Origin: Candidatus Pelearchaeum maunauluense
GTDB taxonomy: Archaea > Thermoproteota > Nitrososphaeria_A > Caldarchaeales > Caldarchaeaceae
Assembly (NCBI GenBank): GCA_030059675.1
Contig: JANVYQ010000011.1
Location: forward strand, 1-51,454
Direction: 5' to 3'
DNA length: 51,454 bases
Shown here: piece by piece, positions 39,309 through 51,454 of the stretch
How the letters are laid out: the number at the start of each line of letters is the position of its first letter
Position numbering within the stretch: the stretch's first letter is position 1
The notes under the pieces: model-generated
What the model was told of the DNA's origin: nothing
What the model saw: only the letters and a program-made list of their open reading frames with translations
The model's database searches: none
Program-made: the position numbers and the translations under genes

Positions 39309-41534
<2,226 letters not shown>

Positions 41535-41552: not shown

Positions 41553-42398
41553 ATGGCTAACGATACAGGAGTTGGTGTAGGGCTGGACCTAGGGATACTG
41601 TTCTGGTTCGTTATACTGATGCTCTTCATCTATCCACAGCTCAGACACCGCATACTGGAGAACGAGAGACTAAAACTAATACAGCGGATAGAAGGCAAGA
41701 CAGGCTCGCGCGTAGTTACGATGATTCACCGACAGGAGAGGATAACGTTCTTCGGCATACCGTTCTACCGCTACATAGATGTGGAAGACTCGGAGCAGGT
41801 TCTGCGCGCCATCAGGATGACGCCTCCAAACAGGCCTCTCACGCTTGTCCTCCACACGCCTGGGGATTAGTTCTGGCCGCGGCGCAGATAGCGCCTGCTC
41901 TAAAAGACCACCCAGCCAAGAAGACCGTTATAGTCCCACACCGCCGCCATGAGCGGCGGCGCGCTCATAGCGCTGGCTTCTGATGAGATAGTCATGGACA
42001 AGCACGCGGTTCTAGGCCCAGTTGACCCGCAGTTGGGCGACCCGCGCGGCGGCGCCATGCCCGCCGCCTCTATTCTTAGGGTTGTGCAGGAGAAGGGTAG
42101 GGAGAGGGTTAGGGACGAGACGTTGATTAAGGCTGACATAGCTGAGCTAACCCGCGACAGGCTGGGCGAGGAGAAGGCGCGCGAGCTGGCCAGGATAATG
42201 GCCTCAGGGACATGGACGCATGACTACCCCCTGACCGTCAAACGGCTACGGGAGCTTGGGATAAACGTCAACACAGAAGTCCCCCGAGAAGTCTATCAGC
42301 TAATGAGCCTATACCCACAGCCAGCCCAGGCTAGGCCCTCGGTAGAGTTCGTCCCAGCCCCATACACGCCGACCAGGCCCAGGCAGGCCTCAAGATAA
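41553..42398 (+). pseudogene. SDH/ClpP-fold serine protease (DUF114-like), frameshifted
   Basis: IHRQE, LHTPG|GLVLAA, AMSGGALIALASDEI and GTWTHDYPL motifs, spread over several frames. Confidence 0.85.
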
Positions 42399-42459: not shown

Positions 42460-42759
42460 ATGGAGTACATCTACGCAGCGCTACTACTGCACAAGGCTGG
42501 AAAGCAGATAGACGAGGAGGGTGTGAAGAAGGTTCTCACGGCCGCGGGTGTTACGCCTGACGATGCCAAGGTAAAGTCGCTAGTAGCAGCTCTCTCTGAG
42601 ATAAACATAGAGGAGACCCTTAAGCAGGCTGTTATGGCTCCAGCGGCTGTGGTAGCCGCTCCAGCGCCAGCCCAGGCACCGCAGGCGCCTGCGAAGGAGG
42701 AGAAGAAAGAGGAGAAGAAAGAGGAGGCCATCGCGGGCCTCAGCGCCCTCTTCGGATAA
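42460..42759 (+). CDS. rpl12: 50S stalk protein P1/L12
   Basis: [11 protein letters not shown]...GLSALFG. Confidence 0.97.
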
Positions 42760-42942: not shown

Positions 42943-45687
42943 ATGAAGTTCGCTGCCGAGCATTACCAGCTTAGCTTCTTCCTCAATAACGGGTTTGTCA
43001 GGCGTAAGTGCAGGGTTTGTGGCGAGTTTTTCTGGACGCTCAACGCAGAGCTTGATGTTTGTGGAGAGTCTCCCTGCGTGCCATACCAGTTCATTGGCCA
43101 GCAGCCTACGAGTAGGCGTATGAGCGTCCGCGAAGCGCGGCAGGCTTTCCTAGACTTCTTCGCCCTGAAGGGGCATAAGGTGATTAAGCCCTATCCAGTC
43201 GTGGCACGCTGGAGGACAGACCTCTACCTTGTCCACGCCTCCATAGTGGATTTCCAGCCCTGGGCCACCAGCGGCATAGCACCCCCACCAGCCAATCCAC
43301 TCGTCATAAGCCAGCCATGCATAAGGATGGTGGACATAGACAAAGTAGGCCTCACGTTCGGTAGGCACTTAACAATCTTTGAGATGGGCGGCCATCATGC
43401 GTTTAACTCGCCTGACAACAAGATATACTGGAAGGATGAGACGACAGAGTATTGTCATGAGTTTATGACGGGCATCCTCGGCATAGATCCGCTCTCCATA
43501 ACCTATAAGGAGGCCGCTTGGGCTGGGGGAGGTAATGCTGGTCCGTGTCTTGAGGTTATCTCAGGCGGCCTGGAGCTGGCGACGCTTGTCTTCATGCAGT
43601 ATAAAACGGATGGGGATGAGCTGACCGAGATACCCATACTCACGGTTGATACTGGGTATGGGATAGAGCGTCTGGCCTGGTTCAGCCAGGGGACGCCCAG
43701 CTGCTTTGATGCGATATACGGAGAGCTGTATCCGAAGGTTTTGGAGAATATTCCTGTTGAGTGGCCTTCTGAGGAGCTTTTGGCTAGCTACGCCCCGCAT
43801 ACGGCGCTGGTGGTTCCCAAGAGCGATGTAACGGTCGCCGAGGCCAGGCGGCAGGTCGCGGCTGCTGCTGGAATCCCAGTTGAGAGGATAGAGGCCGAGA
43901 TAGCTCCGCTGGAGAGACTATACGCTGCTCTTGACTTTACGAAGGCTATAGCGTTCATAGTATCCGAGGGCGTAGTCCCCAGCAACGTCAAGGCGGGCTA
44001 CCTAACTAGGCTCCTTATAAGAAAGACATACCGCCACCTAAGGAGAATGGGGTATGCTGATAGACTGCTTGACCTGCTTGACTTACAGCTCGGCTATTGG
44101 TCGCGCGACTTCCCGCACCTTGCCGAGATGCGCGACGAGGTGTTGGACATAGTTGGGCATGAGGTTGAGAAGTTTGAGGACACGCTTGCTAAGGGGGTTA
44201 GCGCTGTTGAGAGGGAGCTGTCAAGCCTCAAGAAGCGTGGCGAGCAGCTCTCGGCAGAGACGCTCGTCAGGTTCTATGATGAGCGTGGCATAACGCCTGA
44301 CATCGTATCTGAGGTGGCTGAGCGTCTAGGCATGAAGGTAGAGACGCTTGAGAACTTCTACGAGCTTGTGGCAGCTCGTCATCTCCGCGAAACGGCACCA
44401 CAGGAGAAAGCCAAGCTCGTTGATGATGAGGAGCTTAGACAATTCCCACCCACTAGAAAGCTGTACTATGAAAAGCCATTCACATACTCCTTCAACGCCA
44501 CCGTCCTAGGCGTGGTTAATGGATACGTCATACTTGACCAGACTCTCTTCTACCCTGAGGGAGGCGGCCAAGTCGGGGATACTGGAGAGCTAATCTACGG
44601 CGGCGGTGATTGTAGGGTTGTGGATACCCAGATAGTTAATGGAGTTATACTGCATAGGGTAGAGGGAACGCCGCCGCGTGTGGGTGAGCAGGTAGAGGGG
44701 GTGGTTGATAGGGATAGGAGGCTGAGCATCATACGCCACCACACAGCGACGCATATAATGATTGGGACTGTTCGCCGCGTGCTGGGGCAGCACGCATGGC
44801 AGGCAGGCGCCAAGAAAGAGCCCGACAAGGCCCGTCTTGACATCTATCATCATAAACGGCTAACTCCTGAGGAGGTGCGCGAGCTTGAGCGCGTAGCTAA
44901 CAGTGTAGTAGCGCGTAGGATGCCTGTTCAGATAAGCTGGCGGGACAGGAACGAGGCTGAGCAGACCTATGGATTCTTCCTATACCAAGGTGGTGAGGTG
45001 CCATCAGCTCAGATAAGGGTTGTTGAAATAGTCGGCTGGGATGCCGAGGCGTGTGGAGGGATACACTGCGAGAACACTGAGGACGTGGGCTTCATCAAGA
45101 TAATCAAGACTGAGCGCATACAGGATGGTGTTGAGCGGCTCATCTTCGCAGCAGGCCCAGCGGCGCTCCAATACGTGCAAAGCGCCGAGATGATACTTGA
45201 GAACGTCGCAGGCACGGTCTCGGCCAGCTACCAAGAGCTGCCGCGCAAGATTGAGGAGCTTGAAGAGGAGATTAGAGAACTACGCAGGTCTGTTAAGCGG
45301 TTGCAGGAACGTATAATACCACAGCGAGTACGCGAGATTCGCGAGATAGCCTTCAAGGTTGATGATGCTGTAATCTACACATCCTACGAAGATATTGACG
45401 ACCAGGAATACTTGATTAAGCTGGCGGCAGAGGTTGTGAATAGGCCTGGCCCTGCTGTCTCGCTTGTTGCGGCGGGGAAGCCCACCGCGCGTGTTGTGTG
45501 TTATGTGAATGACGAGGCTGTGAAGCGTGGGTATAAGGCTGGCAGGATAGTTGCGCAGTTCTGCCAAGCCCTCGGCGGGAGAGGCGGCGGGAGGGATAAC
45601 CTAGGCCAGGGCGCCGTCCCCTACCACGAGGGGATAGAGGAGCAGCTCAACGCGGTTATACAGTTCGTCCAGCCAGTCAGCCGCTGA
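42943..45687 (+). CDS. alaS: Alanine--tRNA ligase
   Basis: QPCIRMVD, FEMGGHHAFN, DTGYGIER, HHTATH, ACGGIH and GGRGGG motifs. Confidence 0.97.
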   Translation: MKFAAEHYQLSFFLNNGFVRRKCRVCGEFFWTLNAELDVCGESPCVPYQFIGQQPTSRRMSVREARQAFLDFFALKGHKVIKPYPVVARWRTDLYLVHASIVDFQPWATSGIAPPPANPLVISQPCIRMVDIDKVGLTFGRHLTIFEMGGHHAFNSPDNKIYWKDETTEYCHEFMTGILGIDPLSITYKEAAWAGGGNAGPCLEVISGGLELATLVFMQYKTDGDELTEIPILTVDTGYGIERLAWFSQGTPSCFDAIYGELYPKVLENIPVEWPSEELLASYAPHTALVVPKSDVTVAEARRQVAAAAGIPVERIEAEIAPLERLYAALDFTKAIAFIVSEGVVPSNVKAGYLTRLLIRKTYRHLRRMGYADRLLDLLDLQLGYWSRDFPHLAEMRDEVLDIVGHEVEKFEDTLAKGVSAVERELSSLKKRGEQLSAETLVRFYDERGITPDIVSEVAERLGMKVETLENFYELVAARHLRETAPQEKAKLVDDEELRQFPPTRKLYYEKPFTYSFNATVLGVVNGYVILDQTLFYPEGGGQVGDTGELIYGGGDCRVVDTQIVNGVILHRVEGTPPRVGEQVEGVVDRDRRLSIIRHHTATHIMIGTVRRVLGQHAWQAGAKKEPDKARLDIYHHKRLTPEEVRELERVANSVVARRMPVQISWRDRNEAEQTYGFFLYQGGEVPSAQIRVVEIVGWDAEACGGIHCENTEDVGFIKIIKTERIQDGVERLIFAAGPAALQYVQSAEMILENVAGTVSASYQELPRKIEELEEEIRELRRSVKRLQERIIPQRVREIREIAFKVDDAVIYTSYEDIDDQEYLIKLAAEVVNRPGPAVSLVAAGKPTARVVCYVNDEAVKRGYKAGRIVAQFCQALGGRGGGRDNLGQGAVPYHEGIEEQLNAVIQFVQPVSR

Positions 45688-46546
45688 AGCCAGCCTTCGC
45701 AGCCAGCGCAGAGGCAAGCAGCTCAGCGCGCAGTAGAAGGTTCTTAATCGTATCCTTATCAGCGTAGCCCGCCTCAATCGCCAGCTCCATAGCCTGACGC
45801 GCAGCAAGCATGATTATCGGCTTAATCGTCTCAGGCGTAACGTATGCTGCGGAGACCGCTATGTTAATCGCCTGCTGAGCTGCCTCAAGTATCTGCTGCC
45901 TAAACGCATCCAAGTCTAGCTTGAGGTCCTCCGCCTTGATTACCACGCCATCCTCGTAGGCTGCTATGAGCGCTAGGCCTCGGAGGACAGCCTTTATGTC
46001 CAGCTTTACTAGGAGGCTCGCGAGTAGGTGGCTTATCTCCTCACCCTTCTTCGCAACCAGCGTGTCCTTCGCAATCCATATCTGGCCGCCCTCTATACGG
46101 GTGGGTATCTTCAGCTTGCCGAAGTCGCTCAACACGGGGCCAGGCGGCAGGCCAGTGTTGGTCTCAGGAACCCAAATGTCAAAGTCGGCCCTCTCACCAG
46201 CGCGGGCATGCATGGGAACTTTATTCTGGTCTATGAGTAGGCTGAGCTTGAACGAGTTTATCTTGCTGAATATGAAGCCCACAGGCTTGTTTATTCCTTC
46301 AAGTAGCTTCTTAACATCTGGCCGTCCAGCCTTATATGCTGCTAGGTTGAAGAGCGTCTTCTTAGCAACGCGCACGACACAGGTGTCGCGGAGCTTCTGC
46401 CGCATCTCGTGGATTATGTTGGCGCGCGTCCCCGTGAGGTCAAAGACAGCTATAACTGGGTAGTTTTTTATCAGCTCCGCTAGCTCCGCTACCTCCTCCT
46501 CTTTCCAGCCATAGCTCTGCCGCGTAACCAGGCGTTGGGCTGACAT
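45677..46546 (-). CDS. rpl10: 50S ribosomal protein P0/L10 (uL10)
   Basis: WKEEEV, VAKKTL and NTGLPPGP motifs. Confidence 0.95.
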   Translation of the reverse strand: MSAQRLVTRQSYGWKEEEVAELAELIKNYPVIAVFDLTGTRANIIHEMRQKLRDTCVVRVAKKTLFNLAAYKAGRPDVKKLLEGINKPVGFIFSKINSFKLSLLIDQNKVPMHARAGERADFDIWVPETNTGLPPGPVLSDFGKLKIPTRIEGGQIWIAKDTLVAKKGEEISHLLASLLVKLDIKAVLRGLALIAAYEDGVVIKAEDLKLDLDAFRQQILEAAQQAINIAVSAAYVTPETIKPIIMLAARQAMELAIEAGYADKDTIKNLLLRAELLASALAAKAGFSG

Positions 46547-46653
46547 GGCTCTAACAACCAGGGCTATAATCCCGCCCAACAGATTACTTAATAAAGATGC
46601 AGCGAGCCTGGGGCTGGATACTCTGGAAAGAAGAGCCTGAAAACCTAGGCGTA

Positions 46654-47465: not shown

Positions 47466-47947
47466 GGCCTGCTCAACAGCTCGTCATACTTGCCCTGTTC
47501 AACCTCCTTAATAACCTCCTTCGGGTTCTTATTATCCACCAGGACGCCCATACTGACGCATGTGCCTAAAACCTGTTTGACAGCCGCCTTAAGCGTCTTG
47601 GCGCGCATATCCTCCTGCTTGGCCGCCGCTATCTTGACTACGCTCTCCATGCTTATAGAGCCAACGAAGTCGTGCCCAGGTGTTCCAGAGCCTTTCTCAG
47701 CGCCAGCCTCCTTTACTATAAGCGCAGCTGTGCTGGGAGTCCCAACCTTAACCGAGAACTCCTTAGTATCAGTATCTACCGTAACCTCAACAGGTACGCG
47801 CATCCCCTTATACTCGGCGGTCGCCTCGTTAATCTTCTCAACCACTTGCATCACGTTAACGCCAAGCGGGCCTAGAGACGAGCCTATAGGCGGCCCTGCC
47901 GTGGACTTCCCACCCTCAACTAGGAGGCGTAGCGTCTTCTCTGGCAA
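47462..47947 (-). CDS. rpl11: 50S ribosomal protein L11
   Basis: GGKSTAGPPIGSSLGPLG and GTCVSMGV motifs; TTG start at 47947. Confidence 0.96.
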   Translation of the reverse strand: MPEKTLRLLVEGGKSTAGPPIGSSLGPLGVNVMQVVEKINEATAEYKGMRVPVEVTVDTDTKEFSVKVGTPSTAALIVKEAGAEKGSGTPGHDFVGSISMESVVKIAAAKQEDMRAKTLKAAVKQVLGTCVSMGVLVDNKNPKEVIKEVEQGKYDELLSRP

Positions 47948-48161
47948 GACTCTGTGCACCGCGAGCGGAGAGCTAGCTGCCTGCATTAATAAATATATAG
48001 CCAGCAGTGGTGAGGGCTGGGATACTGGGTTTCTAGCAGTGCTACGCTGCCTATGCGGCGGCGTAATGCGCTGCTGGAGCTACCGCGGCCATTAGCGTAG
48101 AATTACTTTTAGAAGAGGGGGAAAATCTCCACGATTTACGGCCGTCGTACGGCTACGACAA

Positions 48162-48172
48162 CCTTATATATC
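48162..48172 (+). promoter_or_regulatory. TATA box candidate for the ubiquitin operon
   Basis: CTTATATAT about 40 nt upstream of the Ub ATG. Confidence 0.5.
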
Positions 48173-48210
48173 CTCTAAAGCGGTGCTGGCTTAGAAGAGG
48201 TCTTACGTAG

Positions 48211-48468
48211 ATGAAAATCAAGATTGTTCCCGCAGTTGGTGGAGGGGCGCCGCTGGAGCTGGAGGTCTCGCCCAACGCTACGATAGGCGCAATTAGGACT
48301 AAGGTGAGCGCGATAAAGAAGCTCCCACCAGATACGACTAGGCTCACCTACAAGGGGAGGGCGCTTAAGGATACCGAGACTCTCCAGAGCTTGGGTATCC
48401 AGGATGGTGATAAGCTGGTTCTGATAACGCGTACGGTGGGGGGTTGTGGCGGTGGAGGGCTATGCTGA
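48211..48468 (+). CDS. Eukaryote-like ubiquitin precursor (78-aa mature form ending RTVGG, plus 7-aa propeptide)
   Basis: Beta-grasp with RLTYKGRALKDTETLQSLGIQDGDKLVLITRTVGG-CGGGGLC; closely resembles Caldiarchaeum subterraneum Ub. Confidence 0.95.
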   Translation: MKIKIVPAVGGGAPLELEVSPNATIGAIRTKVSAIKKLPPDTTRLTYKGRALKDTETLQSLGIQDGDKLVLITRTVGGCGGGGLC

Positions 48469-48970
48469 GCTCCCAGAGGCGATGTGGTATAAGAGGCTCA
48501 GCATAGAATACTCCCTAGTCCAGGAGCATGAGCCGAACTTCAGCCCAGTTGATGGAGACCTAACCCACTACGAGGGCGTGATAATCGGCTCGGGCCTCTA
48601 CGAGTCAGGCTACTTCCGCGTGGAGATATTCATACCACGCTCATTCCCATTCCACCCGCCAGACATTGTATGGCACACGCGGATATGGCACCCCAACTTC
48701 TCCGACGAAGTCCCAGCACGGGTATGCGAGTCCATCATTAAAGACCACTGGTCGCCCTCACTCCACGTGATAACGGTCATAGAGGCTCTGCGAAGCCTCT
48801 TGAACGACCCCAACCCAGACGACCCGCTTAACGCAGTCGCGGCCATGGAGCTTAAGATGAGGCCCGACATATTTGAGGCGCGGGTTCGCGAGTATATTGC
48901 CCGGTTCGCAACCCCTGAGCAGGCGTTCTACGATGGTAGGAGAAGGTGGAGACTGGTCAGCCACGGCTAG
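48446..48970 (+). CDS. Ubiquitin-conjugating enzyme E2
   Basis: FPFHPP, TRIWHPN, catalytic Cys in RVCESII, WSP and PNPDDPLN motifs. Confidence 0.96.
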   Translation: MAVEGYAELPEAMWYKRLSIEYSLVQEHEPNFSPVDGDLTHYEGVIIGSGLYESGYFRVEIFIPRSFPFHPPDIVWHTRIWHPNFSDEVPARVCESIIKDHWSPSLHVITVIEALRSLLNDPNPDDPLNAVAAMELKMRPDIFEARVREYIARFATPEQAFYDGRRRWRLVSHG

Positions 48971-48977
48971 GCTGGTT

Positions 48978-50150
48978 TTGGAGAGATACGACAGGCAGCT
49001 CCGCCTCCAGGGCTGGGACCAGTCCAAGATACAGGCCGCCACCGTGCTTATTGCTGGTGTGGGCGCTCTAGGCTGCGAGGTATCCAAGAACTTAGCCCTA
49101 ATGGGGATAGGGAAGCTGGTGCTGGTTGATAATGATGTTGTTGAGCTCTCCAACCTGAGTAGGCAGATGCTCTTCGCTGATAGCGATATAGGTATGCCGA
49201 AGAGCGTGGTTGCTGAACGTAGGCTACGTGAGATGAACCCCCACGTGGCTACCAAAGCCCTCAACGGAGATGTTAGACAACTATCGCAGGAGCTCTTCAA
49301 AGATGTTGATGTGATATGCGCGTGCGTGGATAACTGGCCCACCCGTAGGTGGCTCAACTCGCTGGCGGTGGAGCTGGGCAAGCCGCTTGTGGATGTCGCC
49401 ATGGAGGGCTTCTACGCCAACGTCCAGGTCATAATCCCTGGAAAGACAGCGTGTATAGAGTGTCATGGAGACTCAATAATACCGAAGGAGGTGCAGGTAG
49501 CTGAGTGCACGTTGAGGAAGCGTAAGCCCGAAGACTTGGTTAATGAGCTCAAGCAGCACGGCGTCGAGATAAGCATGGAACATGCTCAAGCGCTCTTCAA
49601 GGCTGGGATAAAGACGGTCTTTGATATAAAATACACTCCCCAGGCTAGTATGTCTGAGCTTGACGGCGAGGTTGTTGGATTGGTTAATAGGCTGAGGAAG
49701 GAGCTTAGGCCCAAGATGCCCGCTCTTCAGAGCGTTGCAGCTGCCATCTCTGGAATAGCCTCGGTGGAGGTTGTGAAGCTACTACATCAGGGCAGCCTTG
49801 GCAAGCCTTTCAGCGGCCTCATAATATACGACGCCCTGGCGGCGCGCTCTACGCGAGTCCCACTCAAGAGGAATAGGGAGTGCTTCGTCTGCGGCGACTA
49901 TGTCAAGACTTCTGGAATCACGATACACCTGAAGAGTGACGAAACTGTTCTGGATCTGAAGGAGATTCTTGCTAGTAGCTACATGTATCCAGACGCGGAG
50001 ATACAGCATAGGACGCGCCTGTTGGCTGATGATGTACGCCTTTCCGAGCTAACGATTGAAGCTGATGAGGTGCTATACATACACACTACGCGGCGGGCGC
50101 AGCCGCTAGCGCTTAAGGTGGTGCTGGATGAGGATAGTGATAGGCGCTGA
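48978..50150 (+). CDS. Ubiquitin-activating enzyme E1 (single subunit; start 48978 or 48933)
   Basis: RYDRQ, GVGALG, DNDVVELSNLSRQ, CIEC, catalytic-type ECTLR, CFVC, and a C-terminal ubiquitin-fold-like domain. Confidence 0.95.
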   Translation: MERYDRQLRLQGWDQSKIQAATVLIAGVGALGCEVSKNLALMGIGKLVLVDNDVVELSNLSRQMLFADSDIGMPKSVVAERRLREMNPHVATKALNGDVRQLSQELFKDVDVICACVDNWPTRRWLNSLAVELGKPLVDVAMEGFYANVQVIIPGKTACIECHGDSIIPKEVQVAECTLRKRKPEDLVNELKQHGVEISMEHAQALFKAGIKTVFDIKYTPQASMSELDGEVVGLVNRLRKELRPKMPALQSVAAAISGIASVEVVKLLHQGSLGKPFSGLIIYDALAARSTRVPLKRNRECFVCGDYVKTSGITIHLKSDETVLDLKEILASSYMYPDAEIQHRTRLLADDVRLSELTIEADEVLYIHTTRRAQPLALKVVLDEDSDRR

Positions 50151-50364
50151 GAGGTCGCTGGGCTTCTGGGACCCCTACTACGAGGAGCAGCGGAAGAGGC
50201 GGATGGAGCCATGCGTGGTCTGCGGCCTAGAGCTTGGAGAGCAGACAATATACTCATGCCCGCACTGCTCGGCAACGGGGCACGAGTCATGCTTCGACGA
50301 CTGGCTCCGAATAAGGAACGCCTGCCCGCTGTGTAGGAGGCCGATACTAGAGGAGGTGGGCTGA
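50128..50364 (+). CDS. Small RING-finger E3 ligase (srfp-like)
   Basis: CVVC...CPHC...HESC..W...CPLCR. Confidence 0.92.
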   Translation: MRIVIGAERSLGFWDPYYEEQRKRRMEPCVVCGLELGEQTIYSCPHCSATGHESCFDDWLRIRNACPLCRRPILEEVG

Positions 50365-50366
50365 GC

Positions 50367-50690
50367 ATGTCGGAGCAACGTAAGCGTAATGAGGATGTCG
50401 TGGAGATTGACCTAAGCTATGTTGAGACTCCACGGGGCAGGGTCGCGGCGTTTGAGACAGTGAAGCAGCTCGCCAACGCCATAGTACTGCTAAACGAGGA
50501 GGAGGAGAACATAAGAAACGAGCTCAGACGAATAGAGCGGGGCGCCGTAGATGAGCAGCGTGTAAAGAGTATTGAGGAGAGGCTGGAGAGGATTGAGCAG
50601 AGATTGGATGACATGATGACGACGCAGGACTACATACTCGACACTCTACAGGAACTTGTCAACGCTGTAGCTGGGTTGAAGAAGAAGTAG
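50367..50690 (+). CDS. Small acidic coiled-coil protein
   Basis: Starts 2 nt after the RING stop; heptads IEERLERIEQRLDDM. Confidence 0.8.
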   Translation: MSEQRKRNEDVVEIDLSYVETPRGRVAAFETVKQLANAIVLLNEEEENIRNELRRIERGAVDEQRVKSIEERLERIEQRLDDMMTTQDYILDTLQELVNAVAGLKKK

Positions 50691-50703: not shown

Positions 50704-51454
50704 TTAGGAGGTTAGGATTGCTCTCCTCATCTCGGTTATTACCTCCTCTAGGCGTGCTCTCCTGGATTCCAGCTCATTAACCTCTTCCTGCAACTGCTTC
50801 TTCCGTGCTTCTAGGTTTGTGAGCTCATTCTTCAGACGTGTGGCGTCTGCCTCAAGCTTCCGCGCCTCTTCAAGCTGCTGCTCCAGAACAGCTAGTTTGG
50901 AGTCCAACTCCTTCTCCTTCCTTATCAGCCGCTCCATCCTTATCTCACGCAGCTTAATCATCTTTTCCACGCGCCTAATCTCCTCGTCAAACCTGCTCCG
51001 CGTCTCCTCAAAAGACGCGAGATACTTCTCCTTCAGCTCGCGTATCTCCTCCTCAAGCTTCTCCTTACGCTGCTGCAAGTACTTCAGCGTCTCCTGCGTC
51101 TGGGCTATCTGCCGCTCGTTCCTCTCAAGCTCAGCTCTCCACTGGTCAACCTCCTCCTTAAGCCGTCTCAGGTTGTTCCGCTCAGTCTCAAAGCGTCGTA
51201 TATCCTCGTTGAGTAGCATACGCTCCCTTTCTAGCGCGTTGATAATCTCCATAACAGCTTCTTGCATGGACTTAATCTGGGAACCATAATCCTTCAGGCT
51301 TGTGAGCGAGGAATAAACCTCCTCAGCCCTCTTGAGGAGGGCGTCCATCCGGCTTGTAACCGTCATGGGGGAGGATGTCTGGGCTATTACCGTCCGCACA
51401 TCATCATTAAGGTTGACCAACGCCACCTCAAGCAGGGATACCTTCTCCTCAAGC
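50704..51454 (-). CDS. Long coiled-coil protein (5' end outside window)
   Basis: Continuous E/K/R/L heptads; the frame stays open to the window end. Confidence 0.8.
   Translation of the reverse strand, partial: LEEKVSLLEVALVNLNDDVRTVIAQTSSPMTVTSRMDALLKRAEEVYSSLTSLKDYGSQIKSMQEAVMEIINALERERMLLNEDIRRFETERNNLRRLKEEVDQWRAELERNERQIAQTQETLKYLQQRKEKLEEEIRELKEKYLASFEETRSRFDEEIRRVEKMIKLREIRMERLIRKEKELDSKLAVLEQQLEEARKLEADATRLKNELTNLEARKKQLQEEVNELESRRARLEEVITEMRRAILTS

Follow-up and report, generated by a model that had tools for sequence, protein, structure and literature searches.

Does a ubiquitylation operon that stands head-to-head with genes for ribosomal proteins, and without the JAMM protease expected beside it, reflect a coupling between protein modification and the ribosome, or the way in which a chromosome was broken and rejoined? 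The question arises at one end of a stretch of 51,454 nucleotides from Candidatus Pelearchaeum maunauluense (assembly GCA_030059675.1, contig JANVYQ010000011.1), a member of the archaeal order Caldarchaeales. This stretch, here called the window, is the entire contig C12 of the source genome (G000), a draft in 21 contigs, and its end falls inside a gene. Judged from its sequence, the segment 48211-50690 is a five-gene operon (pro-ubiquitin, E2, E1, RING-H2 E3 and the coiled-coil protein cc107) orthologous to the ubiquitylation system of Caldiarchaeum subterraneum. Directly upstream, the genes for ribosomal proteins L11, L1 and L10 run divergently away from the ubiquitin (Ub) gene. A first-pass annotation of the window had read this arrangement as a hint of co-regulation with ribosome synthesis or of a role in ribosome quality control. 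We conclude instead that the rpl11 adjacency and the unlinked Rpn11 gene are very probably the products of one inversion-type double break in this genus, with the genes on either side apparently keeping their own promoters, and that the operon itself is a known one.

The rpl11 junction and its reciprocal

Gene neighbourhoods were compared in 30 loci centred on E2, in 28 loci centred on L11 from outside the genus of G000 and its independently assembled congener G001, and in 20 loci of 16 kb from eight genera. Among the E2-centred loci, L11 and L1 adjoin Ub in two, those of G000 and G001, and the L11-Ub linkage scored by contig and position is likewise found in two of 41 genomes. An Rpn11-like JAMM gene stands divergently upstream of Ub in 27 of the 30 loci, the misses being G000, G001 and G004. 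Once the larger loci of G018 (yes), G026 (yes) and G027 (no) are added, the count becomes 29 of 33 genomes. Spt5, for its part, is the gene just before L11, in the same orientation, in 25 of the 28 loci outside the genus; of the misses, L046 is rearranged and L058 and L064 give no Spt5 match. In both G000 and G001 the order is instead Spt5, JAMM and cc278, a gene for a further coiled-coil protein.

These two departures fit together. In the ancestral state, Rpn11 would have stood divergently beside Ub, as it does in most of the order. Breaks would then have fallen in the divergent promoter region between Rpn11 and Ub and in the spacer between Spt5 and rpl11, and crosswise rejoining would have placed Spt5, Rpn11 and cc278 in a row at one junction and rpl11 head-to-head with Ub at the other. 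Because the junctions are reciprocal, the rpl11 adjacency and the seemingly missing JAMM gene can be seen as two faces of one rearrangement. The same picture emerges when all open reading frames of C12 and of contig C16, which carries Rpn11, are placed on about 420 kb of G006, a single-contig genome from the sister genus in the same family (segments in Table 1): the Spt5-L11 and Rpn11-Ub neighbourhoods are cut and rejoined crosswise in the inverted sense, as a single inversion would do.

The two contigs can themselves be joined. The last 29 nt of the window (51426-51454) are identical to the first 29 nt of C16 (G000:C16:1-29), and this 29-mer occurs nowhere else in the G000 assembly. In the joined sequence, the gene cut by the window end becomes an open frame of 282 codons with an N-terminus like that of its relatives. 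Given this unique overlap and the restored frame, Rpn11 and Ub most likely share a replicon, about 133 kb apart, with Rpn11 on the adjoining contig. The idea that the whole change consisted of one chromosome arc being simply inverted was dropped after the join, since further inversions are needed; what is claimed as one event thus covers the two junctions and not the whole region.

The head-to-head arrangement over some 260 bp described in the first-pass annotation is confirmed, with a spacer of 263 bp when L11 is started at TTG 47947 and of 224 bp when it is started at ATG 47986, the first codon of the longest open reading frame. We prefer the TTG because relatives align from residue 14 only, because ATG 47986 is not kept in G001, and because L11 of G004 opens with the same TTG-Pro-Glu-Lys-Thr. 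Within the spacer, Ub and L11 appear to retain their own TATA-like elements and so to have separate core promoters, the two elements being 162 bp apart. The pattern CYTTATATAY has its single window match at the Ub element, against a chance expectation of 0.6 that makes it not significant alone, so that the argument rests on positional conservation: the core CTTATATA occurs at the same place upstream of Ub in five of nine relatives inspected (G006, G007, G002, G005 and G033) and not at that place in G004, G028, G019 and G020. A/T-rich stretches similar to the rpl11 element follow the Spt5 stop codon in relatives, and the A/T element upstream of the relocated Rpn11 resembles, by eye, that of G002 and G005. 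Since Ub and L11 keep their own elements, and Rpn11 apparently does too, no new regulatory coupling need be assumed.

The middle of the spacer holds a G+C-rich hairpin, which may be a scar of the rearrangement. Between G000 and G001 the spacer is 84% identical and differs by an indel of 27 nt, present in G001 as an insertion inside the hairpin. A search of Rfam with 47800-48400 gave no match at E <= 1. A scan for bacterial promoters and terminators returned shuffle-level signals only, with bacterial models that are not applicable to archaea.

It is against this background that the ribosomal reading, in which the arrangement would have been selected for co-regulation of ubiquitylation with ribosome synthesis or would reflect a part in ribosome quality control, has to be weighed. 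The two gene sets do diverge over only 263 bp, both genomes of the genus keep the arrangement, the new spacer holds a stable hairpin, and in 17 of 20 loci a gene for a glycyl-type class II aminoacyl-tRNA synthetase is the conserved neighbour on the opposite flank. However, only one genus shows the linkage (2 of 30 loci, 2 of 41 genomes), its two genomes are not independent evidence of selection, and the linkage is accounted for as a by-product of the reciprocal break that also put Rpn11 behind Spt5. The TATA-like elements, 162 bp apart, each belong to their own gene in relatives, and in compact genomes it is common to have housekeeping genes as neighbours. The first-pass annotation had itself held that a linkage peculiar to this genome, taken together with a lack of translation-related substrates, would speak against its hint; as to the linkage, the synteny comparison leaves it in G000 and its congener G001 only. 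We therefore regard the ribosomal reading as improbable; a coupling to the ribosome has no comparative support, and we would caution against guilt by association, as the locus should not serve as an argument for a ribosome link.

Several observations nevertheless weigh against a single double break as the full account. At the breakpoints proper, neither a repeat nor any other mark of recombination is seen: the two junction spacers share no repeat (blastn-short gave only chance words of 7-8 nt), and neither recurs elsewhere in the G000 genome. The derived spacers measure 263 and 108 bp, against about 140 and 20-60 bp for the ancestral ones, and the hairpin in the new rpl11-Ub spacer is unexplained. 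Compared with G006, the G000 region is broken into a mosaic by many other rearrangements, and with C12 joined to C16 the present gene order requires at least one more inversion. The JAMM-Ub adjacency is also gone in G004 and G027, where L11 is not involved, so the Rpn11-Ub spacer may be regarded as simply break-prone; the adjacency is lost in 4 of the 33 genomes (G000, G001, G004 and G027), and of these the Rpn11 gene itself was found elsewhere in G000, G001 and G004 only. The promoter assignments for Ub, L11 and Rpn11 are made on sequence only, and the activity of these particular proteins would follow from orthology with a reconstituted system. What the losses do indicate is that the Rpn11-Ub linkage is not obligatory.

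The unlinked protease

The first-pass remark that no JAMM gene stands beside the operon holds for the whole window, where neither the JAB nor the Prok-JAB profile finds a match. It does not extend to the genome: a search of G000 finds three JAMM genes, at C16:129258-129971, C16:15611-15955 and C11:31957-32253, so that the protease is merely unlinked and not absent. The first of these, an Rpn11-like gene whose product is the genome's best JAB-domain protein, matches C. subterraneum Rpn11 (PDB 6FJU) with an identical stretch that includes the His-x-His, Ser and Asp positions, which we take to be the JAMM motif. It lies 108 bp downstream of Spt5 on the same strand and is followed after 4 nt by cc278.

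The Spt5 of this family deserves a remark of its own. At about 300 residues, it carries a beta-sandwich domain of some 150 residues inserted in its NGN domain, while members of families f3 and f4 have the usual 153-169 residues. Its predicted structure (pLDDT 87.6) has Thermotoga NusG as its top Foldseek match, followed by archaeal Spt5 chains; the NusG proteins of Thermotoga and Aquifex carry an inserted domain themselves.

With Rpn11 unlinked, the maturation of pro-ubiquitin could have passed to another protease, with the two remaining JAMM proteins as the candidates; alternatively, the tail could be dispensable. Such a change would be in keeping with the presence of those two further genes, with a short tail, rich in glycine, that does not resemble the one in C. 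subterraneum, and with a relative (L027) whose ubiquitin has no tail at all. We consider it very unlikely: the Rpn11 orthologue is intact in the alignment with 6FJU and, in work on the C. subterraneum proteins, the second JAMM protein failed to cut pro-ubiquitin and the E1 did not activate the full-length precursor (PMC6043591, PMC5654768). That a metagenome bin was misassembled into a chimera at the L11-Ub junction, the true genome having Rpn11 beside Ub, is scarcely credible even for a draft of 21 contigs in which the window is a whole contig ending within a gene, because both junctions (L11-Ub and Spt5-JAMM) recur in the independently assembled G001, with the 27-nt spacer indel and 95-96% protein identity, and G000 has one copy each of E2, L11 and the Rpn11-like JAMM gene.

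Table 1. Features of the ubiquitin locus, its former neighbours and the segments placed on G006. Positions without a prefix are those of the window.
Feature	Position	Strand	Description
Ribosomal protein L10 (P0)	45677..46579	-	Pfam Ribosomal_L10 2.4e-19, RL10P_insert 2.7e-19
Ribosomal protein L1	46794..47465	-	Pfam Ribosomal_L1 2e-49
Ribosomal protein L11	47462..47947	-	Pfam Ribosomal_L11 2.6e-25, L11_N 2e-23
A/T-rich TATA-like element, rpl11	47987..47999	-	39 nt upstream of TTG 47947
G+C-rich hairpin	48031..48078		Middle of the 263-bp spacer; fold z -2.58 (+), -2.94 (-) for 48002-48160
TATA-like element, Ub operon	48162..48171	+	39 nt upstream of Ub ATG; core CTTATATA
Pro-ubiquitin (Ub)	48211..48468	+	85 aa; Pfam ubiquitin 5.3e-14
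E2 ubiquitin-conjugating enzyme	48446..48970	+	174 aa from GTG 48446; UQ_con 3.1e-30
E1-like activating enzyme	48933..50150	+	405 aa from ATG 48933; ThiF 4.2e-61
Small RING-H2 finger protein (srfp, E3-like)	50128..50364	+	78 aa; zf-RING_2 1.1e-08
cc107, fifth operon gene	50367..50690	+	107 aa; N-terminal TP.G.V motif, then coiled coil
cc240, convergent coiled-coil gene	50704..51454	-	Cut by window end (5' open); about 280 aa at full length
RING2, second RING protein	G000:C16:269-967	+	About 232 aa; four hydrophobic helices; C-terminal RING-H2, zf-RING_2 1e-10
cc278, coiled-coil protein after Rpn11	G000:C16:128417-129253		278 aa
Rpn11-like JAMM	G000:C16:129258-129971		237 aa; CsRpn11 (PDB 6FJU) 5.1e-78; Pfam JAB 2.1e-19
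Spt5	G000:C16:130080-131003 (L001:1936-2859)	-	307 aa; Pfam Spt5-NGN 6.2e-16, KOW 5.6e-05
Segment with Rpn11 last	C16 125.8-129.9 kb		G006 1432.9-1436.9 kb
Segment of the next genes, Spt5 first	C16 130.1-135.8 kb		G006 157.9-153.0 kb
Segment with L11 last	C12 42.3-47.4 kb		G006 165.9-158.8 kb
Ub operon			G006 1437 kb onward

The operon and its conserved neighbours

The complete Ub-E2-E1-RING operon of the first-pass annotation is upheld: four open reading frames on one strand, overlapping by 23, 38 and 23 nt, carry the expected motifs and all match Pfam families. All four genes are found in this order in 21 of the 30 loci. An E1 match is missing in L015, L020 and L031 and a RING match in six more, including L010, L016, L017, L025 and L030; several of these loci end at a locus or contig edge, and one of 3.5 kb has nothing past E1.

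The propeptide of Ub, also claimed earlier, can be read directly: after TVGG (residues 75-78), where the mature part stops, comes a tail of seven residues. A variable tail follows TVGG in 29 of 30 relatives' Ub genes; its sequence differs freely from one to the next, and its length ranges from 0 to 20 residues, L027 having none. In searches of the PDB, Ub matches chains named 'ubiquitin-like protein' (2MQJ, 1e-43; 6FJ7, 2.1e-41; 5ZEW), in a range from 1e-43 to 1e-40. The propeptide is coded wholly inside the overlap with the start of E2 (48445-48468), and the tail sequence may be mostly shaped by this overlapping region.

The E2, whose start could also be GTG 48452, has an HPN motif at residue 82 and a candidate catalytic cysteine, Cys94, both of which align with the HPN and the active-site cysteine of human E2-25K; its best solved relatives are the eukaryotic E2-25K/E2 K proteins (1e-23, PDB search). 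It is the only protein of the G000 genome with a UQ_con match. For E1, the longest open reading frame (48873-50150) opens at TTG 48873, but homology favours ATG 48933, as the E1 proteins of relatives begin just ahead of a conserved ERYDRQ. Invariant in 12 of 12 aligned orthologues are the glycine-rich ATP loop GVGALG (G42-G47), the two zinc-type CxxC pairs C174/C177 and C317/C320, and the loop cysteine C192 in AEC(T/S)L. The MoeB, ThiF and UbaA models of NCBIfam match E1 below their cut-offs. A C-terminal ubiquitin-like domain is suggested by a weak Pfam ubiquitin match below cut-off (0.0018, residues 347-406 of the long open reading frame) and by tblastn, in which Ub matches the E1 C-terminus in several relatives. 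Finally, the RING protein shows the spacing C-X2-C-X11-C-X2-C-X4-H-X2-C-X10-C-X2-C at residues 29-69, found by regular expression and containing the zinc ligands. An alignment of 15 sequences has 15 invariant columns, including all eight zinc ligands and Trp59.

The conserved neighbourhood is larger than these genes. Reading outwards, cc278 follows Rpn11 on one side of Ub, while on the other cc107 follows the RING gene, succeeded by the convergent cc240 and by RING2, which is predicted to be membrane-anchored; this neighbourhood is kept across four taxonomic families, its parts being found in 16-17 of the 20 loci. The coiled-coil proteins belong to no known family of proteins and are confined to this lineage. 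The fifth operon gene, cc107, begins 2 nt after the RING stop codon, lies within a few nt of it in the loci inspected, and directly follows the RING gene in 16 of the 20. It has no Pfam match above cut-off (only sub-threshold coiled-coil ones) and no NCBIfam match. A word-indexed profile search, with 8000 candidates scored, gave only 16 clusters at E <= 0.001, each of them either without a name or labelled 'hypothetical', and the Atlas yielded only unnamed clusters <0.9. A complex prediction for RING and cc107 scored 0.13 against a mark of 0.32 and, having been run without controls, is evidence neither way. The cc240 gene is present in 17 of the 20 loci, its relatives having about 277-314 residues; RING2 comes right after it in the same number of loci, which in G000 places it just past the window end, and the class II aminoacyl-tRNA synthetase gene follows. 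Fuchs et al. 2018 mention 'a second E3 protein' in passing (PMC6043591).

cc278 follows Rpn11 in 17 of the 20 loci, starting about 35 nt past the Rpn11 stop codon in two relatives checked. Like cc240, it has sub-threshold matches only in Pfam (coiled-coil) and NCBIfam, and PDB profile searches of the accessory coiled-coil proteins returned only coiled-coil or prefoldin-like noise. Its AlphaFold model, a confident one (pLDDT 80.9), has helices over residues 65-278. Foldseek found nothing at E <= 0.001, VIA-align reached a top Z of 10.8, no more than helical bundles are expected to give, and the Atlas gave no usable feature match. An identity with CdvA was tried and rejected: a PF18822 search of the genome (E <= 0.1) matched C3 and C20 only, below cut-off, and not C16:128417-129253, while the structural likeness (VIA Z 10.2 to 9s9g among many helical matches; Atlas TM 0.46/0.53) is unspecific. 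The gene occurs in 71 of 76 genomes of the class; in the phylum sample, all 43 genomes from the order have it and none of the 258 others does. Searched exhaustively with a profile, 1.84 billion representatives yielded 14 at E <= 1e-30. cc278 is thus lineage-specific and does not accompany archaeal E2 systems universally, and its distribution is inseparable from phylogeny.

We suggest, as a tentative and rather doubtful possibility, that the Caldarchaeales ubiquitin system is larger than the five published genes, with the coiled-coil proteins serving either as its adaptors or as substrates that it modifies in the cell. Rad50 offers a parallel, as lysines within its coiled coils were modified when the C. 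subterraneum cascade was run in vitro (PMC5654768). Together with RING2 and its four predicted helices, the coiled-coil proteins could bring part of the system to the membrane. Fuchs et al. 2018 describe physiological conjugates as not available (PMC6043591); cc107, cc278, cc240 and RING2 offer concrete candidates for the native partners or substrates of the system.

Two further observations concern the rest of the window. An acidic ribosomal stalk protein gene (42460-42759, +; Ribosomal_60s 2.9e-13) lies on the strand opposite to L10, L1 and L11 (45677-47947, -), with an alanyl-tRNA synthetase gene between them. A ClpP-like serine protease of the SDH type (PF01972), which comes after a Cdc48-type AAA ATPase (39333-41534), is split into two open reading frames, 41553-41870 and 41949-42398, covering profile positions 12-102 and 131-280; candidate causes of the split are a frameshift, breakage of the gene and an error of assembly.

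Comparison with known ubiquitylation systems

That the system is not new, as the first-pass annotation had stated, agrees with its distribution: E2 is detected in every one of 41 genomes sampled across the order and, in the phylum sample, in all 43 that belong to the order and in five of the 258 others. Its closest counterpart is the C. subterraneum system, with rpn11l divergent from ubl-e2l-e1l-srfp (CSUB_C1473-C1477; Nunoura 2011, PMC3082918; Hennell James 2017, PMC5654768; Fuchs 2018, PMC6043591). The two share the order Ub-E2-E1-srfp with overlapping genes, a Ub ending in TVGG plus a propeptide, the spacing of the RING ligands, and an E1 architecture with a C-terminal ubiquitin-like domain. 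The RING spacing printed for CSUB_C1477 in PMC3082918, the paper that also describes the operon, equals the one found here. The proteins share 88% (Ub), 68% (E2), 52% (E1) and 55% (RING) identity with those of G006, and the Ub tail of G006 equals the published nine-residue propeptide of C. subterraneum letter for letter (PMC5654768). The present genome belongs to another genus of the same family and differs in its unlinked Rpn11, which lies about 133 kb off behind Spt5 with rpl11 in its place, and in its propeptide, which has seven residues and is glycine-rich, against the nine published.

For the C. subterraneum proteins, Rpn11 has been reported to cut pro-ubiquitin after GG, and E1, E2 and srfp to conjugate Ub in an ATP-dependent manner (PMC5654768, PMC6043591). 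By orthology, the Rpn11-like JAMM protease would trim the seven-residue tail and expose Gly-Gly; E1 would adenylate Ub and then carry it as a thioester; Ub would be handed to Cys94 of E2; the RING protein would promote its transfer onto lysines; and the same JAMM protease would undo the modification. The system is the textbook archaeal forerunner of eukaryotic ubiquitylation; one more copy adds little.

The six Aigarchaeota bins of Hua et al. 2018 (PMC6053391) all carry ubiquitin systems, in line with the 41 of 41 genomes found here; as far as the main text of that paper goes, gene order, accessory coiled-coil genes and the rpl11 linkage are not described.

Compared with the eukaryotic cascade of E1, E2, RING E3 and Rpn11/AMSH-type JAMM proteases, the likeness lies in an E2 whose best solved relatives are eukaryotic and in a JAMM protein whose best solved relatives after CsRpn11 are proteasomal Rpn11 and CSN5, with presumably the same chemistry. 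In contrast to that cascade, the genes here are single-copy and coded in an operon, and the E3 is a minimal protein of 78 residues without a substrate-binding domain. The archaeal JAMM protein, moreover, works alone and matures the precursor too (PMC6043591).

The archaeal SAMP/UbaA and bacterial ThiS/MoaD-MoeB systems share with the present one an E1 of the ThiF fold and a beta-grasp modifier ending in Gly-Gly. However, those systems are without an E2 and a RING E3, whereas the system described here has an E2 of the UQ_con family and RING proteins.

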